Shown: positions 1 through 15,307 of the stretch, piece after piece
Position numbering within the stretch: position 1 is the first letter of the stretch
Layout: each line of letters opens with the position of its first letter
NCBI RefSeq assembly: GCF_001894925.1
Contig: NZ_BCXD01000022.1
Coordinates: forward strand, 1-32,000
Source of the DNA: Rhodococcus rhodnii NBRC 100604
GTDB lineage: Bacteria > Actinomycetota > Actinomycetes > Mycobacteriales > Mycobacteriaceae
DNA length: 32,000 nucleotides
Reading direction: 5' to 3'
Made by a program: the position numbers and the translations under genes
The notes under the pieces: generated by a model
What the model was told of the DNA's origin: nothing
Seen by the model: the letters and a program-made list of their open reading frames with translations, nothing else
Databases searched by the model: none

Positions 1-181
1 AGTTAGTCGCCGCGTCGAGCGCGAGTCCCGCATCGGCGGCCGAGCCACGCGAGACGCGAGCGAGCAAGGTGCCGTCGATCGGTGAGCGGTCGTCGAATCG
101 ACGTGCAGACGACACCCGCTGGCCACCGATCCAGTGATCGGTGCTCACCACGACGCCGTCGACGTTCGCGAAGTTCATCAT
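1..181 (-). CDS. Aldehyde dehydrogenase family protein, N-terminal fragment (gene continues past the left edge)
   Basis: Not in the ORF track. My own reverse-strand translation from ATG 181-179 gives MMNFANVDGVVVSTDHWIGGQRVSSARRFDDRSPIDGTLLARVSRGSAADAGLALDAATN with no stops down to position 2. GGAGA Shine-Dalgarno at 191-187, 5 nt upstream. The HWIGG..V....F...SPIDG..LA.V pattern is the usual ALDH N-terminus. Confidence 0.6.
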   Translation of the reverse strand, partial: MMNFANVDGVVVSTDHWIGGQRVSSARRFDDRSPIDGTLLARVSRGSAADAGLALDAATN

Positions 182-246: not shown

Positions 247-996
247 TCAGCCGAAATGCGATCCGCCGTTGACGTGCAGCGTCTGCCCGGTGACGAAGGA
301 CGATCCGCCGCTCACGAGATAGGCGACGGTTCCGACGAGATCGCCGGGGGTCTGCTCACGTTGCAGACAGCGCCCGGCGATCGCTCGGTCGCGCGCGCCG
401 GGACTGCGGGAGTGCAGGTCGTCGTCGGGGACGTAGTCGGGTGCGATCGCGTTGACCCGAATGTCGTCGGGGCCCAGTTCGCGTGCGAGCGACCGGGTCA
501 TCCCCCCGATCGCGGCCTTGGCAGCTGCGTAGTGCACGACGTTCGCCAGGCCCTTGTACGCGGTCGCGGAGGACACGTTGACGATCGAACCGCCACTGCT
601 CTTGCGCATCCACGGGACGACTGCGCGGATCGCGTTCCATGTGCCCTTGACGTTGATCTCGAAGCACGCGTCGAAATCGGACTCGGGGATCTCTTCGAAA
701 GGCCCCCGCACCATGGTCCGGAAGTAGCCGGCATTGTTCACGAGGGCGTGCACCGCGCCGAACTCCTCGTACGCACGACGTGCCATCGCCTCGAGCGTGT
801 CGACACTGCGCAGATCGACGTCGACTCCGATCGCACGAGAACCGTTCTCCCGCAACTGCGCAGCGGCCGCCTCGCTCCCCCGGAGATCGGCGACCACGAC
901 CGCCGCCCCCTCCCGCGCGAGCGCGGTGGCGTACGCCTTGCCCAGATGGACTGTCGCGCCCGTGACGACGACGACGCGTCCGTTCAGTGCACCCAT
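247..996 (-). CDS. Short-chain dehydrogenase/reductase (SDR); possible diol dehydrogenase of the cluster
   Basis: C-terminal 249 aa of track ORF 247..1473, starting at ATG 996-994 (MGALNGRVVVVTGAT...). NNAG motif and a catalytic S...YAAAK (YxxxK) are present. The glycine motif is atypical: TGATVHLG instead of TGxxxGxG. Confidence 0.85.
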   Translation of the reverse strand: MGALNGRVVVVTGATVHLGKAYATALAREGAAVVVADLRGSEAAAAQLRENGSRAIGVDVDLRSVDTLEAMARRAYEEFGAVHALVNNAGYFRTMVRGPFEEIPESDFDACFEINVKGTWNAIRAVVPWMRKSSGGSIVNVSSATAYKGLANVVHYAAAKAAIGGMTRSLARELGPDDIRVNAIAPDYVPDDDLHSRSPGARDRAIAGRCLQREQTPGDLVGTVAYLVSGGSSFVTGQTLHVNGGSHFG

Positions 997-1736
997 TGCC
1001 TCCCCCTCCTGTCGTTCGTATCGTGCGTGTCGTACGTGTCGTACGTGTCGTACGTGTCGTACGTGTCGTACGTGTCGGTGTCGGTGTTCGTGTCGGACCC
1101 GTCCGTCGGGGCCGGGCCAAGAGGCTCGCCCGGCCCGGTGTGCATCGGGGCGCGGTGATCGAAACTGTGGCGCCCGGTCCAGCGCTCCACCGGTTCGGCA
1201 TCGATTCCCAACAGATCGAGTGCTCGTACGACCGTGTGATCGACGATGTCCTGCACGGTGTGCGGACGGGTGTAGAACGCGGGAACCGGCGGCATCACGA
1301 TCGCGCCCGACGCGGTCGCCTCGGCCATGAGTCGAATGTGCCCTGCGTGCAACGGAGTCTCGCGGAGCAGCAGGACGAGTCGGCGACGCTCCTTGAGCGT
1401 GACGTCGGCCGCCCGCACGAGCAGGTTCTCGTCGTAGGCGTTCGCGACACCGGACAGCGTCTTGACGCTGCACGGCGCGACGAGCATGCCTGCGGTGCGG
1501 AAAGACCCGCTCGAGATCGCGGCGGCGAGGTCGCCGTCGGAGTACGTGTGCGTCGCGAGCGCCGTCACGTCGGCGACCGTCATCCCGGTCTCCTGAACGA
1601 TCGTCGCGCGGCCGCTCGACGAGACGACGAGATGCGTCTAGACACCGAGTGCCCGCAGCATCTCGAGCGCCCGGATACCGAGGACTGCGCCCGAGGCGCC
1701 CGAGATGCCGACGACGACGCGTCGCGAGGAGTCCAT
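984..1736 (-). pseudogene. ubiX: Flavin prenyltransferase UbiX interrupted by an in-frame TAG (1640-1638), with a 62-aa low-complexity C-terminal extension
   Basis: Minus strand from ATG 1736 reads MDSSRRVVVGISGASGAVLGIRALEMLRALGV-TAG-THLVVSSSGRATIVQETGMTVADV...SSGSF...APCSVKTLSG...RETPLH...PPVPAFY...ERWTG. It is colinear with UbiX/Pad1 proteins. The stop keeps the frame (track ORFs 1638..1940 and 984..1583 are in the same phase). There is a 1-nt gap to the upstream dehydratase stop. Confidence 0.8.
1011..1097. repeat. 9-bp tandem repeat: five perfect GTCGTACGT units (1029-1073) flanked by degenerate copies
   Basis: Read directly from the sequence. Perfect units at 1029-1037, 1038-1046, 1047-1055, 1056-1064 and 1065-1073. 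Degenerate units at 1011-1028 (gtcgttcgt, atcgtgcgt) and 1074-1097. Encodes (TYD)n in the ubiX frame. Every unit contains the palindrome CGTACG. Confidence 0.95.
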
Positions 1737-1737
1737 G

Positions 1738-3459
1738 TCAGCCTTTCGTCGTGGTGGGGAGGCAGAAGTCGAAGTCGCAGCCTTCGTCGGCCTGCAGGAC
1801 GTGATCGCGGTAGAGCCGGGAGTAGCCGCGCTCGTCGCCACATGCGGGCGGCTGCCACTCCTCCCTGCGCCGATCGAGTTCCTCGTCGGAGACGAGGAGC
1901 TCGAGCGAGCGCTGCCGCACCGACATCCGGATCCGGTCACCGTCCCGAACGAGGGCGAGCGGGCCCCCCACCGCGGCCTCGGGAGCGATGTGCAGCACGA
2001 TCGTGCCGTACGCCGTTCCGCTCATCCGCGCGTCCGAGATCCGCACCATGTCCTTGACGCCCTGCTCGGCGAGCACCTTGGGGATCGGGATGTAGCCCGC
2101 CTCGGGCATCGCCTCGGCGACCGGTCCCGCATTGCGCAACACGAGGACGTCGTCCGCGCGCACATCGAGATCGGGTGAGTCGATCCGGTCCGCCAGATCC
2201 TGCAGCGAATCGAAGACGACGGCGCGTCCTTCGCTCTCGAACAGCGACTCGTCCGCCGCCGAGCGCTTGAGGATCGCTCCACCGGGCGCGAGATTGCCCG
2301 AGAGCGAGACGATTCCGCCGACGACGGACACCGGTGTCGCCACCGGTCGGACGACCCGCTCGTCGCGCCACGGATCGGTGTCCGCGAGCACGTCGCGCCA
2401 GGTCGTTCCCGCCACCGTGGCGCAGTCGAGGTTCATCAGGTCACCGAGTTCGCGGAACACCGCGGGTACGCCGCCCGCGCGGTGGAAGTCCTCCATGTAG
2501 TGCTCGCCGGAGGGCTTGAGGTCGACGAGGACCGGAGTCGTGTCGCTCAGCCCGTTGAGTTCCTCTGCGGTGAAACCGAGGCCGAGACGACGTGCCATCG
2601 CGGTCAAGTGGATGACGGCGTTCGTCGAGCCACCGATCGCGAGCAGAACACGCAGGGCGTTGACGACCGAGTCCTTCGTGACGATCTCACTGGGCCGCAC
2701 CGCGACTCGAGCGAGCTGCGTCGCGAGCGCCCCACTCGCCTCGCCCGCTCGGAGGCGGTCCGCGTGCACGTTCGGGATCGCCGCCGTGCCCGGCAACGAC
2801 ATGCCGAGGGCTTCCGCGATGCACGCCATCGTGCTCGCGGTGCCCATCACCGCGCAGGTGCCCGACGTCGTCGCGAGATTTCCCTCGACGGCGGTGATCT
2901 GCGGCTCCGTGATCTCGCCGGCGCGGTACCTGCCCCAGAAGCGCCGGCAGTCGGTGCACGCACCGAGCCGTTCGCCGTGATAGCTGCCCGTCATCATCGG
3001 GCCGGTGACCACCTGTACCGCAGGCTTGTCCACCGAGAACGCACCCATCAACTGGGCGGGCACGGTCTTGTCGCACCCGCCCACGAGCACCACCGAGTCC
3101 ACGGGCTGGGCCCGCACCATCTCCTCGACGTCCATCGCCATGAGGTTGCGAAACTTCATCGACGTCGGATGGAGAAACGGCTCACCCAGCGAGATCGTCG
3201 GGAACGCCACGGGCAGCCCGCCCGCGAGCATGACGCCCCGCTCGATCGCCGCGACGAGTTCGGGCATCTGCCGGTGACAGTTGTTGAAACCGCTCTCCGA
3301 CGTGGCGATTCCGATCGTCGGACGGCTCAGGGCGTCCTCGCCGTATCCCATCGACTTGGTGAAGCTGCGCCGCAGATAGGCCGCGAAGCCGGGATCGCCG
3401 TAGTGGGTGAGATTGCCCGTCAGACCCTGCGGCCCGTCCGTGGACTCGGTGCCGGTCAT
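1738..3459 (-). CDS. IlvD/Edd family dehydratase (sugar-acid / dihydroxy-acid dehydratase type)
   Basis: 573-aa ORF. Family Fe-S and active-site motifs FNNCHRQ, VLVGGCDKTVP and TSGTCAVMGTASTM are present. Its ATG (3459-3457) overlaps the upstream gene stop as ATGA. Confidence 0.9.
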   Translation of the reverse strand: MTGTESTDGPQGLTGNLTHYGDPGFAAYLRRSFTKSMGYGEDALSRPTIGIATSESGFNNCHRQMPELVAAIERGVMLAGGLPVAFPTISLGEPFLHPTSMKFRNLMAMDVEEMVRAQPVDSVVLVGGCDKTVPAQLMGAFSVDKPAVQVVTGPMMTGSYHGERLGACTDCRRFWGRYRAGEITEPQITAVEGNLATTSGTCAVMGTASTMACIAEALGMSLPGTAAIPNVHADRLRAGEASGALATQLARVAVRPSEIVTKDSVVNALRVLLAIGGSTNAVIHLTAMARRLGLGFTAEELNGLSDTTPVLVDLKPSGEHYMEDFHRAGGVPAVFRELGDLMNLDCATVAGTTWRDVLADTDPWRDERVVRPVATPVSVVGGIVSLSGNLAPGGAILKRSAADESLFESEGRAVVFDSLQDLADRIDSPDLDVRADDVLVLRNAGPVAEAMPEAGYIPIPKVLAEQGVKDMVRISDARMSGTAYGTIVLHIAPEAAVGGPLALVRDGDRIRMSVRQRSLELLVSDEELDRRREEWQPPACGDERGYSRLYRDHVLQADEGCDFDFCLPTTTKG

Positions 3460-4465: not shown

Positions 4466-4786
4466 TCAGATCTGGTTCTCGGGAATCGTCACCGCGATCC
4501 CGTCGAGGCCCGCGGTGGCCTCGATCTGGCACGCGAGCCTGCTGGTCGGCTCGCACTCGGGGCTGAGCCCCACGAGGACTTCTTCCGTGGGATCGAGCGG
4601 GCCGGATGCGTCGAACCACTGCTGGTCGACGATCACGTGGCACGTTCCGCGGATCGCGCCGCCTCCGCACTCGGCGACGATTCCCTCGACGCCCTCCTGC
4701 CGGGCCGCCTCCATGAGGGTCAGACCCTCGTCGACGTCCAGCACGACCGCGGGATCACCCGACTTGTAGTGAAAGGTCGCTTTCAT
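4466..4786 (-). CDS. [2Fe-2S] ferredoxin, adrenodoxin/putidaredoxin type, lacking the second canonical Cys ligand
   Basis: 106 aa from ATG 4786 (MKATFHY...), with AGGTGA 5 nt upstream; GTG 4795 is an alternative start. Fold-typical GLTLMEAA, AECGGGAIRGTCHV and SRLACQI. The expected C-x5-C-x2-C reads C-x5-R-x2-C here. Confidence 0.8.
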   Translation of the reverse strand: MKATFHYKSGDPAVVLDVDEGLTLMEAARQEGVEGIVAECGGGAIRGTCHVIVDQQWFDASGPLDPTEEVLVGLSPECEPTSRLACQIEATAGLDGIAVTIPENQI

Positions 4787-9495: not shown

Positions 9496-10920
9496 TCAGC
9501 GCGTGATCCACTCGCGCAGGTCGATGGCGGCCGCGCCGGGAATCACGGCGCGCTCGGGACGATCCGACGCCCGCGCCGCGATCGGAGCCGTCGCGACGAT
9601 CCCCATGCGCGCGGTCGTCCCGGTGTCGGTGAGGCGCTTGTTCACCGGATTCCCCTTCCCACCGGAGATCACCACGAGGTCCTCGTCGGCGCGGAACCAT
9701 GTCGCGATCGCACGTTCGACGGCCTGCGCGTCGAACGGATCGACATCCCCGTCGACCACCACGACGAGCGTGACATCACGGTGAGCCGCGAAGGCCGCGA
9801 GCACCGTGTCCTTGCCGTCGCCGTCGTGCGCGGTGTCGACGGACACCACGACGTGGAACTTGTTGAGCCCGCCGCCGGTCACGTTGATCGCCCGTACCCC
9901 GGGGATGCCGCCGCGCATCGCGGTGAGCATCGCGGGCTCGTTGGGCAGACCCATGAGCAGCAACTGCTCGGACGATCCCGAGATCATGCCCTGGTACACG
10001 GGATCGCGCCGGTGCGTGACGGCGTCGATCCGCACGACGTGGCGCTGCGTGACGCCTTTGTAGAACCCCGCGAACTCCGCGAACGGCCCCTCGTTGCCAC
10101 GCTCGTTCGGCAGTACGTGCCCTTCGAGCACGTACTCGGCACGAGCGGGCACCATGAGCGAGTTCGTGACGCCGCGCACGAGTTCCTCAGGCCGCCCGCG
10201 CAATCCGCCGGCGATACCGTACTCGTCGGCCCCGAAAGGGACCGCCGACCCCGAGGTTCCCGCCGCGAAGCGCAGCGGCGCATCCACACCCACGACGATC
10301 GAGACCGGCATCGGCAGGTTCTGTTCCTCGTAGGCATCGAGGATCCGGTGCAGATGCCGCGGGACGATCACCATCCGCAGTTCACGCGGCCCCTTGACCT
10401 GCATCCGGTGGTACGACAGATTGCGCTGCCGTGTCTCGGGATGCTCGGCGGTGACGATTCCCGACGTGATGTAGGGGCCACCGTCGTGCTCGAAGTGGGT
10501 GAGGACGGGCAACGCGGTCAGGTCGACCTCGTCGCCCGTGCGCACCGTCTCGTGAACGGGCGCATCCGTCACCTCGATCGGCGAGATCGGACACGACAAC
10601 GCCCGCGCGTAGCGATCCGTGAGCGATCCGGCGGTCACGCCCAGCGCGAGTGCCACCCGTTCGCGTGTGGCGTCCGTTCCGATCACGACGCTCGCACCGC
10701 GGTGGCCGACTGCGCGGAACATCAGCGCGGGGCCCGCCGTCACGTCGGCCCGATGAGCGATCGCCGCGAGCTCGTGGTGCGCCGCGACCGTGCGGTCGAC
10801 GATCGCGAGTTCGCCTGCCGCATCGAGCCGTTCGATCTGCTCGCGCAACGACGTCACCGCTGCCGTCGTTGTGGTCGCCGTGTCCGAGTTTGCCGTCGTG
10901 TCCGAGTTCACCGCTGCCAT
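9496..10920 (-). CDS. UbiD-family (prFMN-dependent) decarboxylase
   Basis: 474 aa from ATG 10920 (GAGGTGA upstream) inside track ORF 9496..10962. Family-typical NLSYHRMQV, ADEYGIAGGLRG and EGPFAEFAGFY. The N-terminus carries a Thr/Ser/Asn-rich extension (MAAVNSDTTANSDTATTTTAA). Confidence 0.88.
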   Translation of the reverse strand: MAAVNSDTTANSDTATTTTAAVTSLREQIERLDAAGELAIVDRTVAAHHELAAIAHRADVTAGPALMFRAVGHRGASVVIGTDATRERVALALGVTAGSLTDRYARALSCPISPIEVTDAPVHETVRTGDEVDLTALPVLTHFEHDGGPYITSGIVTAEHPETRQRNLSYHRMQVKGPRELRMVIVPRHLHRILDAYEEQNLPMPVSIVVGVDAPLRFAAGTSGSAVPFGADEYGIAGGLRGRPEELVRGVTNSLMVPARAEYVLEGHVLPNERGNEGPFAEFAGFYKGVTQRHVVRIDAVTHRRDPVYQGMISGSSEQLLLMGLPNEPAMLTAMRGGIPGVRAINVTGGGLNKFHVVVSVDTAHDGDGKDTVLAAFAAHRDVTLVVVVDGDVDPFDAQAVERAIATWFRADEDLVVISGGKGNPVNKRLTDTGTTARMGIVATAPIAARASDRPERAVIPGAAAIDLREWITR

Positions 10921-10930
10921 TTCTGTCACC

Positions 10931-11692
10931 TCACACCACAGCGCGATCCTGCTCGGGAACACCGAGCAGTCCCATCACCCGCTCGTATGCGGCCTCGACG
11001 GCCGGGTCGGTCAGGCTGCGGGGATGCTCGGCGTCGATCGTGATGTGGTCGAGAACGCGGCCGGGCCGCGCGGACAACACGATCACCGATGTCGCGAGCG
11101 AGATCGCCTCCATCACGTTGTGGGTGACGAACACGATCGTCGAACGACGTTCCAGCCACAGGTCACGCAGGAACAAACGCTGCGTGCGCGCCGTCATCTC
11201 GTCGAGCGCGGAGAACGGCTCGTCCATGAGCAGCATCGCCGGCTCCGTCGCGAGCGCGCGGGCTATCGAGACTCGCTGCTGCATTCCGCCCGAGAGCGCC
11301 GCCGGGTAGAAATCGCCGTAGTCGGAGAGGCCGGCGGCAGCGAGGTACTCGGAGGTCTGCTGCTGGAACGGAACCCGCCTGTTCTGCGACCTGGCCGCTC
11401 TCGTGATCTCGAGGTTCTCCTGGACCGTCCGCCACGGCAGCAGCCGGGCGCGCTGGAACACGAATCCGATCTCCTCGGGCGACGGCGCGTCCAGTAGTCC
11501 GCTCGTCGGCTTCTGCAGTCCCGACAGGATGTTGAGGAGCGTCGACTTGCCGCTGCCGGAAGGGCCGAGGATCGCGACGAACTCACTGTCCCCGACGGTG
11601 AAGGAGATGTCGTCGAGCACCTGCAACTGTTCTCCGCCGGGAACCGCGAAGCTCTTGCACACGCCGTCGAAGGTGATGATGGGTTCAGGCAC
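10931..11692 (-). CDS. ABC transporter ATP-binding protein, NitT/TauT (nitrate/sulfonate/taurine) family
   Basis: 253 aa with a GTG start. Walker A GPSGSGKST, signature LSGGMQQRVSIARAL, Walker B LLMDEPFSALD. 8-nt overlap with the permease stop. Confidence 0.9.
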   Translation of the reverse strand: MPEPIITFDGVCKSFAVPGGEQLQVLDDISFTVGDSEFVAILGPSGSGKSTLLNILSGLQKPTSGLLDAPSPEEIGFVFQRARLLPWRTVQENLEITRAARSQNRRVPFQQQTSEYLAAAGLSDYGDFYPAALSGGMQQRVSIARALATEPAMLLMDEPFSALDEMTARTQRLFLRDLWLERRSTIVFVTHNVMEAISLATSVIVLSARPGRVLDHITIDAEHPRSLTDPAVEAAYERVMGLLGVPEQDRAVV

Positions 11693-13747: not shown

Positions 13748-15307
13748 TCACACCTCGCGAACGCTCCCCGTTGGACAATTTCGGAGACGATCTGTCGCCT
13801 GCTCGGACAGTTGCGGGTAACGCTGCAGCGCGGCGAACCACAACTCGGCACGCGCGGTGGGATCGCTGAGCATCTTCCCCAGGAGTCGTTCGATACGACG
13901 GACCCGCGAGCGCAGCGTGTGACGGTGAACGCCGAGGAGATCCGACGCGGTCTCGACATGTCCGTTGAGGCCGAGCCACGCGATGAGCGTCCGGCACAGG
14001 TCGCCGGCGCGTTCGCCGTCCGCGACCTCGATCGGCGCGAAGATGCTCGCCGCGATGTCGCCGTCGTCGGCCGCCACGAGCAATGCGGAGTACGTGGGCC
14101 CGACCCGGCTGCCGACCTCGAGAACCCCCATGCTCGTCGCGGCCGCGGCCGTCGCTGCGCGATCGGCCTGCTTGAGCGCCTGCTCGGCGTCGCCGATCCC
14201 ACGAGCGACCGCGATTCCCACGGAATGCCGGCTGGCATGCACGAGGGTCCGCTCGATCGCCTCCGCGTCGAGGTGCCGCTCGCTCATGAACATCGCGAGC
14301 CGGCTCTTGTACCGGGCGACCAGGACGTTGGATCGGTAGGCCTCGACGTCGCTACGGATCGCGTCGATCTCGGGTTTCGGAACGTGGATCACCGCGACGG
14401 CGATGCGCCCCGACGCAAGCGGCCCCCCGAACAGGACGGTCATCTGTTCGGGGGGCAGGAGGTGGTTGTCGAGGATCATCACGAGTGCGTCGAGCCGACG
14501 CCGCTCGGCGAGAGTACGGGTCGCTTCGAGCTCGAGTTCGAACCCCAGCACCTCGGCGGCGATCGCGCCGACGCGATCGCGTGGCCCCCTGTCGTCGGGC
14601 ATCCCCCCGACGACGAGGGTCCCCAGGTGGCGGGACCTGCCGCCGAGCGGAAGCACCTCGATGCGCTCGCCGTTCGCGATGACCGAGGCACTGGCGAAGG
14701 TGCCGGAATCGCGAGTGCGGGCGAGCACGTCGGCGACATCGGCGAGCCGGTCGACCGCAGCGCGCGGTGCGACGGTACGGACCACGCCGACCGGAGAGAG
14801 CAGCGCGGCCCACCCGCCACCCTGCTCGGCCAGCGCCGCGACCAGAGCGTCCGCACCTCCTCGGAGCGCGGCCCTCGTGAGCGCCTCCCGGATCCGGTTG
14901 TCGCGGGCCTCCACCGCGTGGTCACGCTCGGCGATGACATCCGCTACCGCCTTGGTGACGGCGATGAACGGTGTCGGCGAGGCGATTTCGAGAAGCACGA
15001 GATCCCAGCGCCGGCACGCCTCGACGAGTTCGACCGGAACCTCGTCGTGGCTCGGACCCAGCCCGAACCCGATTCCGACCACTCCGACCTTCGCGAGTCG
15101 CTCGACGTACCCACCGAACTCGCGGCGTTCACGGAAGCGCATTCCGGTCGTCAGCAGGATCTCGCCACCGTTGAGGTACCTGGTCGGGTCCTCGTGCTCA
15201 CTGGTAGCCACCCACGAGATCTCGGTGTCGAGACGCTCCTGCCCGACGATCACCCGAATGCCGAGACGCACATCCTCGACGACGCTTCGCAACGTTGAAT
15301 CCACCAC
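13748..15307 (-). CDS. PucR-family transcriptional regulator
   Basis: C-terminal ~519 aa of track ORF 13748..15964. Preferred start is GTG 15307 or 15304, with GGAGG 4-7 nt upstream; ATG 15358 is the alternative. N-terminal PurC-like region (ISWVATSEHEDPTRYLNGGEILLTTG). C-terminal PucR HTH (LLGVHRHTLRSRVRRIERLLG). Confidence 0.85.
   Translation of the reverse strand: MVDSTLRSVVEDVRLGIRVIVGQERLDTEISWVATSEHEDPTRYLNGGEILLTTGMRFRERREFGGYVERLAKVGVVGIGFGLGPSHDEVPVELVEACRRWDLVLLEIASPTPFIAVTKAVADVIAERDHAVEARDNRIREALTRAALRGGADALVAALAEQGGGWAALLSPVGVVRTVAPRAAVDRLADVADVLARTRDSGTFASASVIANGERIEVLPLGGRSRHLGTLVVGGMPDDRGPRDRVGAIAAEVLGFELELEATRTLAERRRLDALVMILDNHLLPPEQMTVLFGGPLASGRIAVAVIHVPKPEIDAIRSDVEAYRSNVLVARYKSRLAMFMSERHLDAEAIERTLVHASRHSVGIAVARGIGDAEQALKQADRAATAAAATSMGVLEVGSRVGPTYSALLVAADDGDIAASIFAPIEVADGERAGDLCRTLIAWLGLNGHVETASDLLGVHRHTLRSRVRRIERLLGKMLSDPTARAELWFAALQRYPQLSEQATDRLRNCPTGSVREV

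Follow-up and report, generated by a model that had tools for sequence, protein, structure and literature searches.

The closest described relatives of the gene studied here are the UbiX/Pad1 enzymes, among them A. niger PAD1 (6QLG), E. coli O157 Pad1 (1SBZ), and P. aeruginosa UbiX (3ZQU/4ZAF), with which it shares full-length homology (189 bits to 6QLG). In the P. aeruginosa enzyme (PaUbiX), the conserved Glu49 removes the C6 proton during ring closure; the E49Q variant is unable to make prFMN (PMC6541611). Like these enzymes, the ubiX gene of the window (the whole stretch of 32,000 nucleotides analyzed here, from contig NZ_BCXD01000022.1 of Rhodococcus rhodnii NBRC 100604) encodes the GxSG loop, Glu49, and all family-invariant residues, and a UbiD gene is found in the same cluster. 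Unlike them, it has an amber codon in place of residue 33, so that the enzyme is most likely not made, and its reading frame specifies an extra (DTY)n tail of about 40 residues.

A second comparison is with the HmfF/HmfG-type UbiD/UbiX pairs of heteroaromatic acid decarboxylation. The best PDB match of the cluster's UbiD is 6h6v/6h6x (269 bits, full length), which we take to be HmfF, the furan-2,5-dicarboxylate decarboxylase, and in both cases a catabolic cluster is provided with its own UbiX. The neighboring genes are, however, unlike those of the described hmf clusters, as they encode a Rieske dioxygenase, a 2-hydroxyacid dehydrogenase, an IlvD/Edd dehydratase, an SDR, two aldehyde dehydrogenases (ALDHs), and a TPP enzyme. 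The host of this locus, R. rhodnii, is the gut symbiont of Rhodnius prolixus, a Chagas-disease vector. Taken as a whole, the data very probably reflect a genuine amber point mutation in the sole ubiX of this genome, with no active UbiX to be expected, inside a decaying accessory cluster.

The Interrupted ubiX Reading Frame

The following features of the ubiX region are referred to below.

984..1736, minus strand: ubiX pseudogene, from ATG 1736 to TGA 986..984, 250 codons, counting the TAG at codon 33
1640..1638, minus strand: in-frame amber codon TAG, codon 33 of ubiX, in the frame read from the sequence; also in L045, L046, and L047
1641..1736, minus strand: N-terminal 32 codons, corresponding to beta1, the GISGASG loop, and helix 1; no Pfam match by itself
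1590..1592, minus strand: codon 49 (GAG), counterpart of the catalytic Glu49 of PaUbiX, intact, between the TAG and the restart ATG
984..1583, minus strand: residual 199-aa ORF from the ATG of codon 52
1010..1077: 9-bp unit in 7.6 tandem copies, source of the (DTY)n tail at the 3′ end of ubiX; assemblies differ in the number of copies

Read on the minus strand from ATG 1736, the frame runs for 32 codons (MDSSRRVVVGISGASGAVLGIRALEMLRALGV) to the TAG at 1640..1638 and goes on in the same phase to TGA 986..984. The original prediction, a nonsense substitution rather than a frameshift, is borne out, as the TAG is in phase with both flanks of the frame and no frameshift was found between 1736 and 984, the phase being unchanged across the TAG. 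When the TAG is read through, the resulting 250-aa product is recognized by the UbiX models NF004685 (243.2 bits, cut-off 188) and TIGR00421 (238.7 bits, cut-off 108.9), and Pfam Flavoprotein spans its residues 6–170. A UbiX-family gene should have an unbroken frame for a Rossmann-like flavoprotein of about 190–210 aa; the frame is uninterrupted in all homologues examined but is broken by the TAG in the window's ubiX.

The translation also agrees with the two fragments that had been predicted, namely an upstream peptide of 32 aa that contains the GISGASG loop and a downstream ORF of 199 aa without it. The latter starts at Met52 and is devoid of the catalytic Glu49 as well. The ATG of codon 52 is the only canonical in-frame start after the TAG; gene callers run on other assemblies annotate the residual piece as 196 or 178 aa. 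The N-terminal G-x-S-G loop and Glu49 are both encoded in ubiX (S15 and E49 are invariant in the alignment of 19 homologues described below), and, from the positions of the stop and the restart, no translatable unit joins one with the other. Because the only canonical restart falls after the catalytic Glu49, both fragments are predicted to be inactive.

At the other end of the gene, the (DTY)n tail accounts for the approximately 40 residues that the window's UbiX has in addition to those of its relatives and creates the overlap with the start of the SDR gene. The number of DTY units is four in one assembly and five otherwise.

Conservation of Codon 33

We aligned the window's UbiX with its 19 closest homologues, which are 58–82% identical to it. 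Position 33 is glutamate in 19 of 19, within the motif E-[T/S]-H-L, and it is therefore the conserved Glu of the ETHL motif that the stop replaces, in keeping with the original prediction. The window's UbiX matches every invariant column of this alignment, and in the two closest relatives examined at the DNA level codon 33 is GAA.

We also considered whether the lost residue might be the catalytic E49 of PaUbiX, and rejected this. Within the N-terminal 60 residues, the window's UbiX and PaUbiX are collinear, with residues 3–53 aligned on 3–53 and no length difference, so that the stop corresponds to residue 33 of PaUbiX. The counterpart of PaUbiX E49 is Glu49 of the window's UbiX (codon 1592..1590), which is intact. 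Outside the closest homologues, PAD1, E. coli O157 Pad1, and an archaeal UbiX likewise have Glu at residue 33, whereas the solved UbiX proteins 7km2 and 2ejb have His and Ser there, respectively. Position 33 is conserved at the level of the subfamily and not universally required. The harm done by the stop at codon 33 lies in the truncation and not in the identity of residue 33.

The Same Stop in Other R. rhodnii Data Sets

A rival reading is an error of sequencing or assembly, the true codon being GAG and the gene intact. Other assemblies were searched for proteins identical to the dehydratase and the SDR encoded on either side of ubiX, yielding 14 and 5 contigs, respectively. The codon-33 TAG is present in GCA_008011915.1 (4.45-Mb contig), in GCA_020054395.1, and in the Logan assembly of SRR15276525. 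In these three sources the first 600 nt of ubiX have 0 mismatches to the window, and no substitution separates them from it over up to 7.4 kb, the sole difference being one 9-bp repeat unit (in GCA_020054395.1). A further 11 contigs are similar, grouped by the same neighboring products and by ubiX pieces of 32 aa plus 196 or 178 aa.

GCA_008011915 corresponds to R. rhodnii ATCC 35071T, with 69.7% G+C and 4,458,924 bp (PMC11449289). GCA_008011915.1 may not be independent of the window's assembly, and in favor of an error it can be said that one matching assembly may share its project of origin with the window. The other two sources, GCA_020054395.1 and the Logan assembly of SRR15276525, are independent of it. 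The same base thus occurs in a second NCBI assembly, which differs in the number of repeat units, and also in independent Logan assemblies. The window's genome has a marker-gene completeness of 99.97%, and the genes next to ubiX are free of frameshifts. An error peculiar to a single assembly is very unlikely as the source of the TAG, and we regard sequencing or assembly error of any kind as highly improbable.

The TAG-bearing sources are clonal and may all derive from one cultured strain. Since all of them are essentially identical over 7.4 kb, the mutation could be confined to a laboratory lineage rather than being species-wide. It appears to be recent relative to the approximately 20% protein divergence from the nearest relatives, judging from the sequence of ubiX, which is otherwise undamaged and no more diverged than its neighbors.

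The Catabolic Cluster and the UbiD Partner

The genes of the cluster that are most relevant to ubiX are the following.

9496..10962, minus strand: UbiD-family decarboxylase, the only one in the genome, intact, presumed client of UbiX
1738..3459, minus strand: IlvD/Edd-family dehydratase, intact, directly upstream of ubiX
247..996, minus strand: SDR, intact, downstream of ubiX with a 13-bp overlap

The cluster occupies 13 kb, between 13582 and the start of the window, with all genes on the minus strand and separated by short gaps or overlapping. Its order is ABC transporter (binding protein, permease, and ATPase), UbiD, a succinate-semialdehyde-dehydrogenase-like ALDH, Rieske dioxygenase alpha and beta subunits, ferredoxin reductase, [2Fe-2S] ferredoxin, 2-hydroxyacid dehydrogenase, IlvD/Edd dehydratase, ubiX, and SDR. 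The same order, with an intact ubiX of 204 aa and followed by the second ALDH and the TPP enzyme, is found in other Rhodococcus genomes and on one metagenomic contig. The cluster is catabolic and horizontally distributed, and we consider it accessory because UbiX was found in only 2 of 24 further genomes searched within the genus. Literature searches for the substrate of the pathway returned nothing specific for this gene order. The 3′ end of the reductase gene overlaps the start of the ferredoxin gene by about 32 nt (window 4755–4786), and the gene calls of other assemblies agree (2674 vs. 2705, L045).

UbiD had been assigned to the same operon as ubiX, and this stands in part. Both genes belong to the same co-directional and tightly packed cluster, which is syntenic in other Rhodococcus, but they are not adjacent, UbiD lying 7.8 kb upstream of ubiX with seven genes in between; a single operon is plausible. 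An apparent stop inside UbiD, suggested by a tblastn HSP, was discarded, being the natural TGA at the end of the gene plus a spurious extension of the alignment.

A search for a second ubiX elsewhere in the genome was among the checks that accompanied the original prediction. The genome-wide search found neither a second ubiX nor a substitute, the window's gene being the sole UbiX-family match. Two other candidates were rejected, a flavoprotein on contig C26 that is CypD/CoaC-like and a match on C3 that belongs to a 469-aa frame typical of CoaBC.

Further Lesions and Probable Decay of the Pathway

Two other genes of the cluster are damaged.

4466..4786, minus strand: [2Fe-2S] ferredoxin, with Arg46 (CGC, 4651..4649) in place of the second Cys of C-x5-C-x2-C
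1..181, minus strand: 5′ fragment of the second aldehyde dehydrogenase, about 46–60 codons, cut by an IS element just past the end of the window and contig

The ferredoxin of the window has Arg at position 46, against Cys in the two orthologues and in the solved putidaredoxin-type ferredoxins (Cys46Arg), and has lost a cysteine ligand of its [2Fe-2S] center. In the second ALDH, a contiguous assembly shows an IS of about 0.9 kb between residues 1–46 and 55–480, carrying a DDE_Tnp_1/DUF4096 transposase and 18-bp terminal inverted repeats (L045:7455-8348, L048:4992-5885). It is because of this IS element that the window's contig ends there (C22/C37 break). Near-identical copies of the IS are found on contigs C40 and C25. 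The remaining genes of the cluster align over their full length with their orthologues and contain no stops. The glycine motif of the SDR was also considered as a lesion and dismissed, as its VHLG is common to the orthologues.

Very probably a single-base change, in its simplest form GAG to TAG (G to T), made codon 33 of the single ubiX amber. Translation would then stop after 32 residues and could restart only at Met52, without the flavin/phosphate loop and Glu49. We infer that no active flavin prenyltransferase is to be expected from either piece, nor, in consequence, any prFMN, which would leave the intact HmfF-like UbiD of the cluster without its cofactor. The ubiX stop is one of at least three lesions in the cluster, and the whole pathway appears to be decaying in this insect-gut symbiont, probably non-functional and in the course of being lost from a host-associated Rhodococcus with a small genome. 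A working prFMN/UbiD decarboxylation pathway should not be assumed in R. rhodnii, a point relevant chiefly to gene annotation and to symbiont biology. The locus also provides a small and well-documented case of multi-hit decay of an accessory cluster, in which a nonsense codon, a missing metal ligand, and an inserted IS lie within about 6 kb of one another.

Nonsense Codons Elsewhere in the Genome

The genome was scanned for stops flanked on both sides by coding-like sequence in the same frame. The scan is homology-free and conservative, and it covers stops. The ubiX site itself was just below the threshold (0.23 vs. 0.25), and for this reason the number of pseudogenes given by the scan is a lower bound. 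For three of its candidates, comparison with 30 genomes of the genus confirmed that a single codon breaks a gene which is uninterrupted in 29–30 of them. The first is the only mycothione reductase gene (mtr) of this genome (NF005884, 687 bits), which is intact in 30 of 30 genus genomes and in which CAG has become TAG at codon 311, ahead of the dimerization domain (contig C9, 176153, minus strand; L027:405-1784:-). The others are a YceI-like gene, with CAG to TAG (C34:15555, minus strand; L026), and an alkyl sulfatase, with TGG to TGA (C6:101228, minus strand; L030), both uninterrupted in 29–30 genus genomes. The nonsense codon in mtr may matter more than that in ubiX for the redox physiology of the symbiont.

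From the codon usage of this genome (70% G+C), we calculated that about 70% of all possible single-base nonsense changes yield TAG. The foremost route is GAG to TAG, with 21%, GAG making up 83% of the Glu codons. Three TAG and one TGA among the four verified cases are what is expected from chance mutation, and the lesion in ubiX is the most ordinary nonsense mutation for this genome.

Other candidate in-frame stops affect an NMT1-type binding protein (C24:4609, TAG), a BPD_transp_1 permease (C1:4916, TAA), a LivH/LivM junction that lacks a start codon within 30 codons (C1:275322, TAG), and a DUF349 protein (C28:46455, TGA).

Termination at the Amber Codon

The in-frame TAG codons of ubiX, mtr, and the YceI-like gene, all three of them conserved, could be taken as a sign of programmed UAG recoding, through pyrrolysine or a dedicated suppressor, or else ubiX could function as a protein in two pieces. 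We looked for the machinery of recoding over the whole genome. ARAGORN found no tRNA with a CUA anticodon, and the best match to PylS scored 22.5 bits against a cut-off of 178. The release factor RF1 (prfA) is intact (470.9 bits, cut-off 423), and TAG terminates 269 of the 2084 confident ORFs (13%), a normal use as terminator that shows no avoidance of the kind expected under amber recoding. The excess of TAG among the in-frame stops was likewise rejected as a sign of recoding, since it matches the prediction from codon usage, and at the corresponding sites the orthologues have normal codons for Glu or Gln. As for two pieces, a restart at Met52 excludes the catalytic Glu49. We have rejected a suppressor or recoding at UAG on these grounds, and the odds that either it or a two-piece UbiX applies here seem to us vanishingly small. 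That the UAG codons of ubiX, mtr, and the YceI-like gene are read through usefully by some unrecognized mechanism, the genes being down-tuned rather than dead, is hardly more credible.

Simple leakiness of termination is somewhat more probable, though still an unlikely account. Near-cognate tRNAs that occasionally read the UAG, with Gln, Tyr, Lys, or Trp as residue 33, would give a little full-length UbiX, and, prFMN being a cofactor, this might perhaps be enough for a partly active UbiD. A rare read-through product might indeed be active, given that position 33 is not universally Glu (as in 7km2 and 2ejb), and the remainder of ubiX is undamaged. The base after the TAG is A, and TAGA is among the rarer contexts of natural TAG ends in this genome (43 of 269). 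Against this, the genome has an intact RF1 and no suppressor tRNA, nothing sets the ubiX site apart from its other nonsense codons, and the crippled ferredoxin together with the IS-split ALDH speaks against selection on the pathway. The amber mutation therefore leaves ubiX a real but ordinary pseudogene, and no new mechanism is implied.

In the same tRNA search, ARAGORN reported a 72-nt "SeC" tRNA with anticodon TCA at 14917-14988 (complement) of a genome contig, which is short for a selenocysteine tRNA; the TGA-interrupted alkyl sulfatase lies in the same genome.
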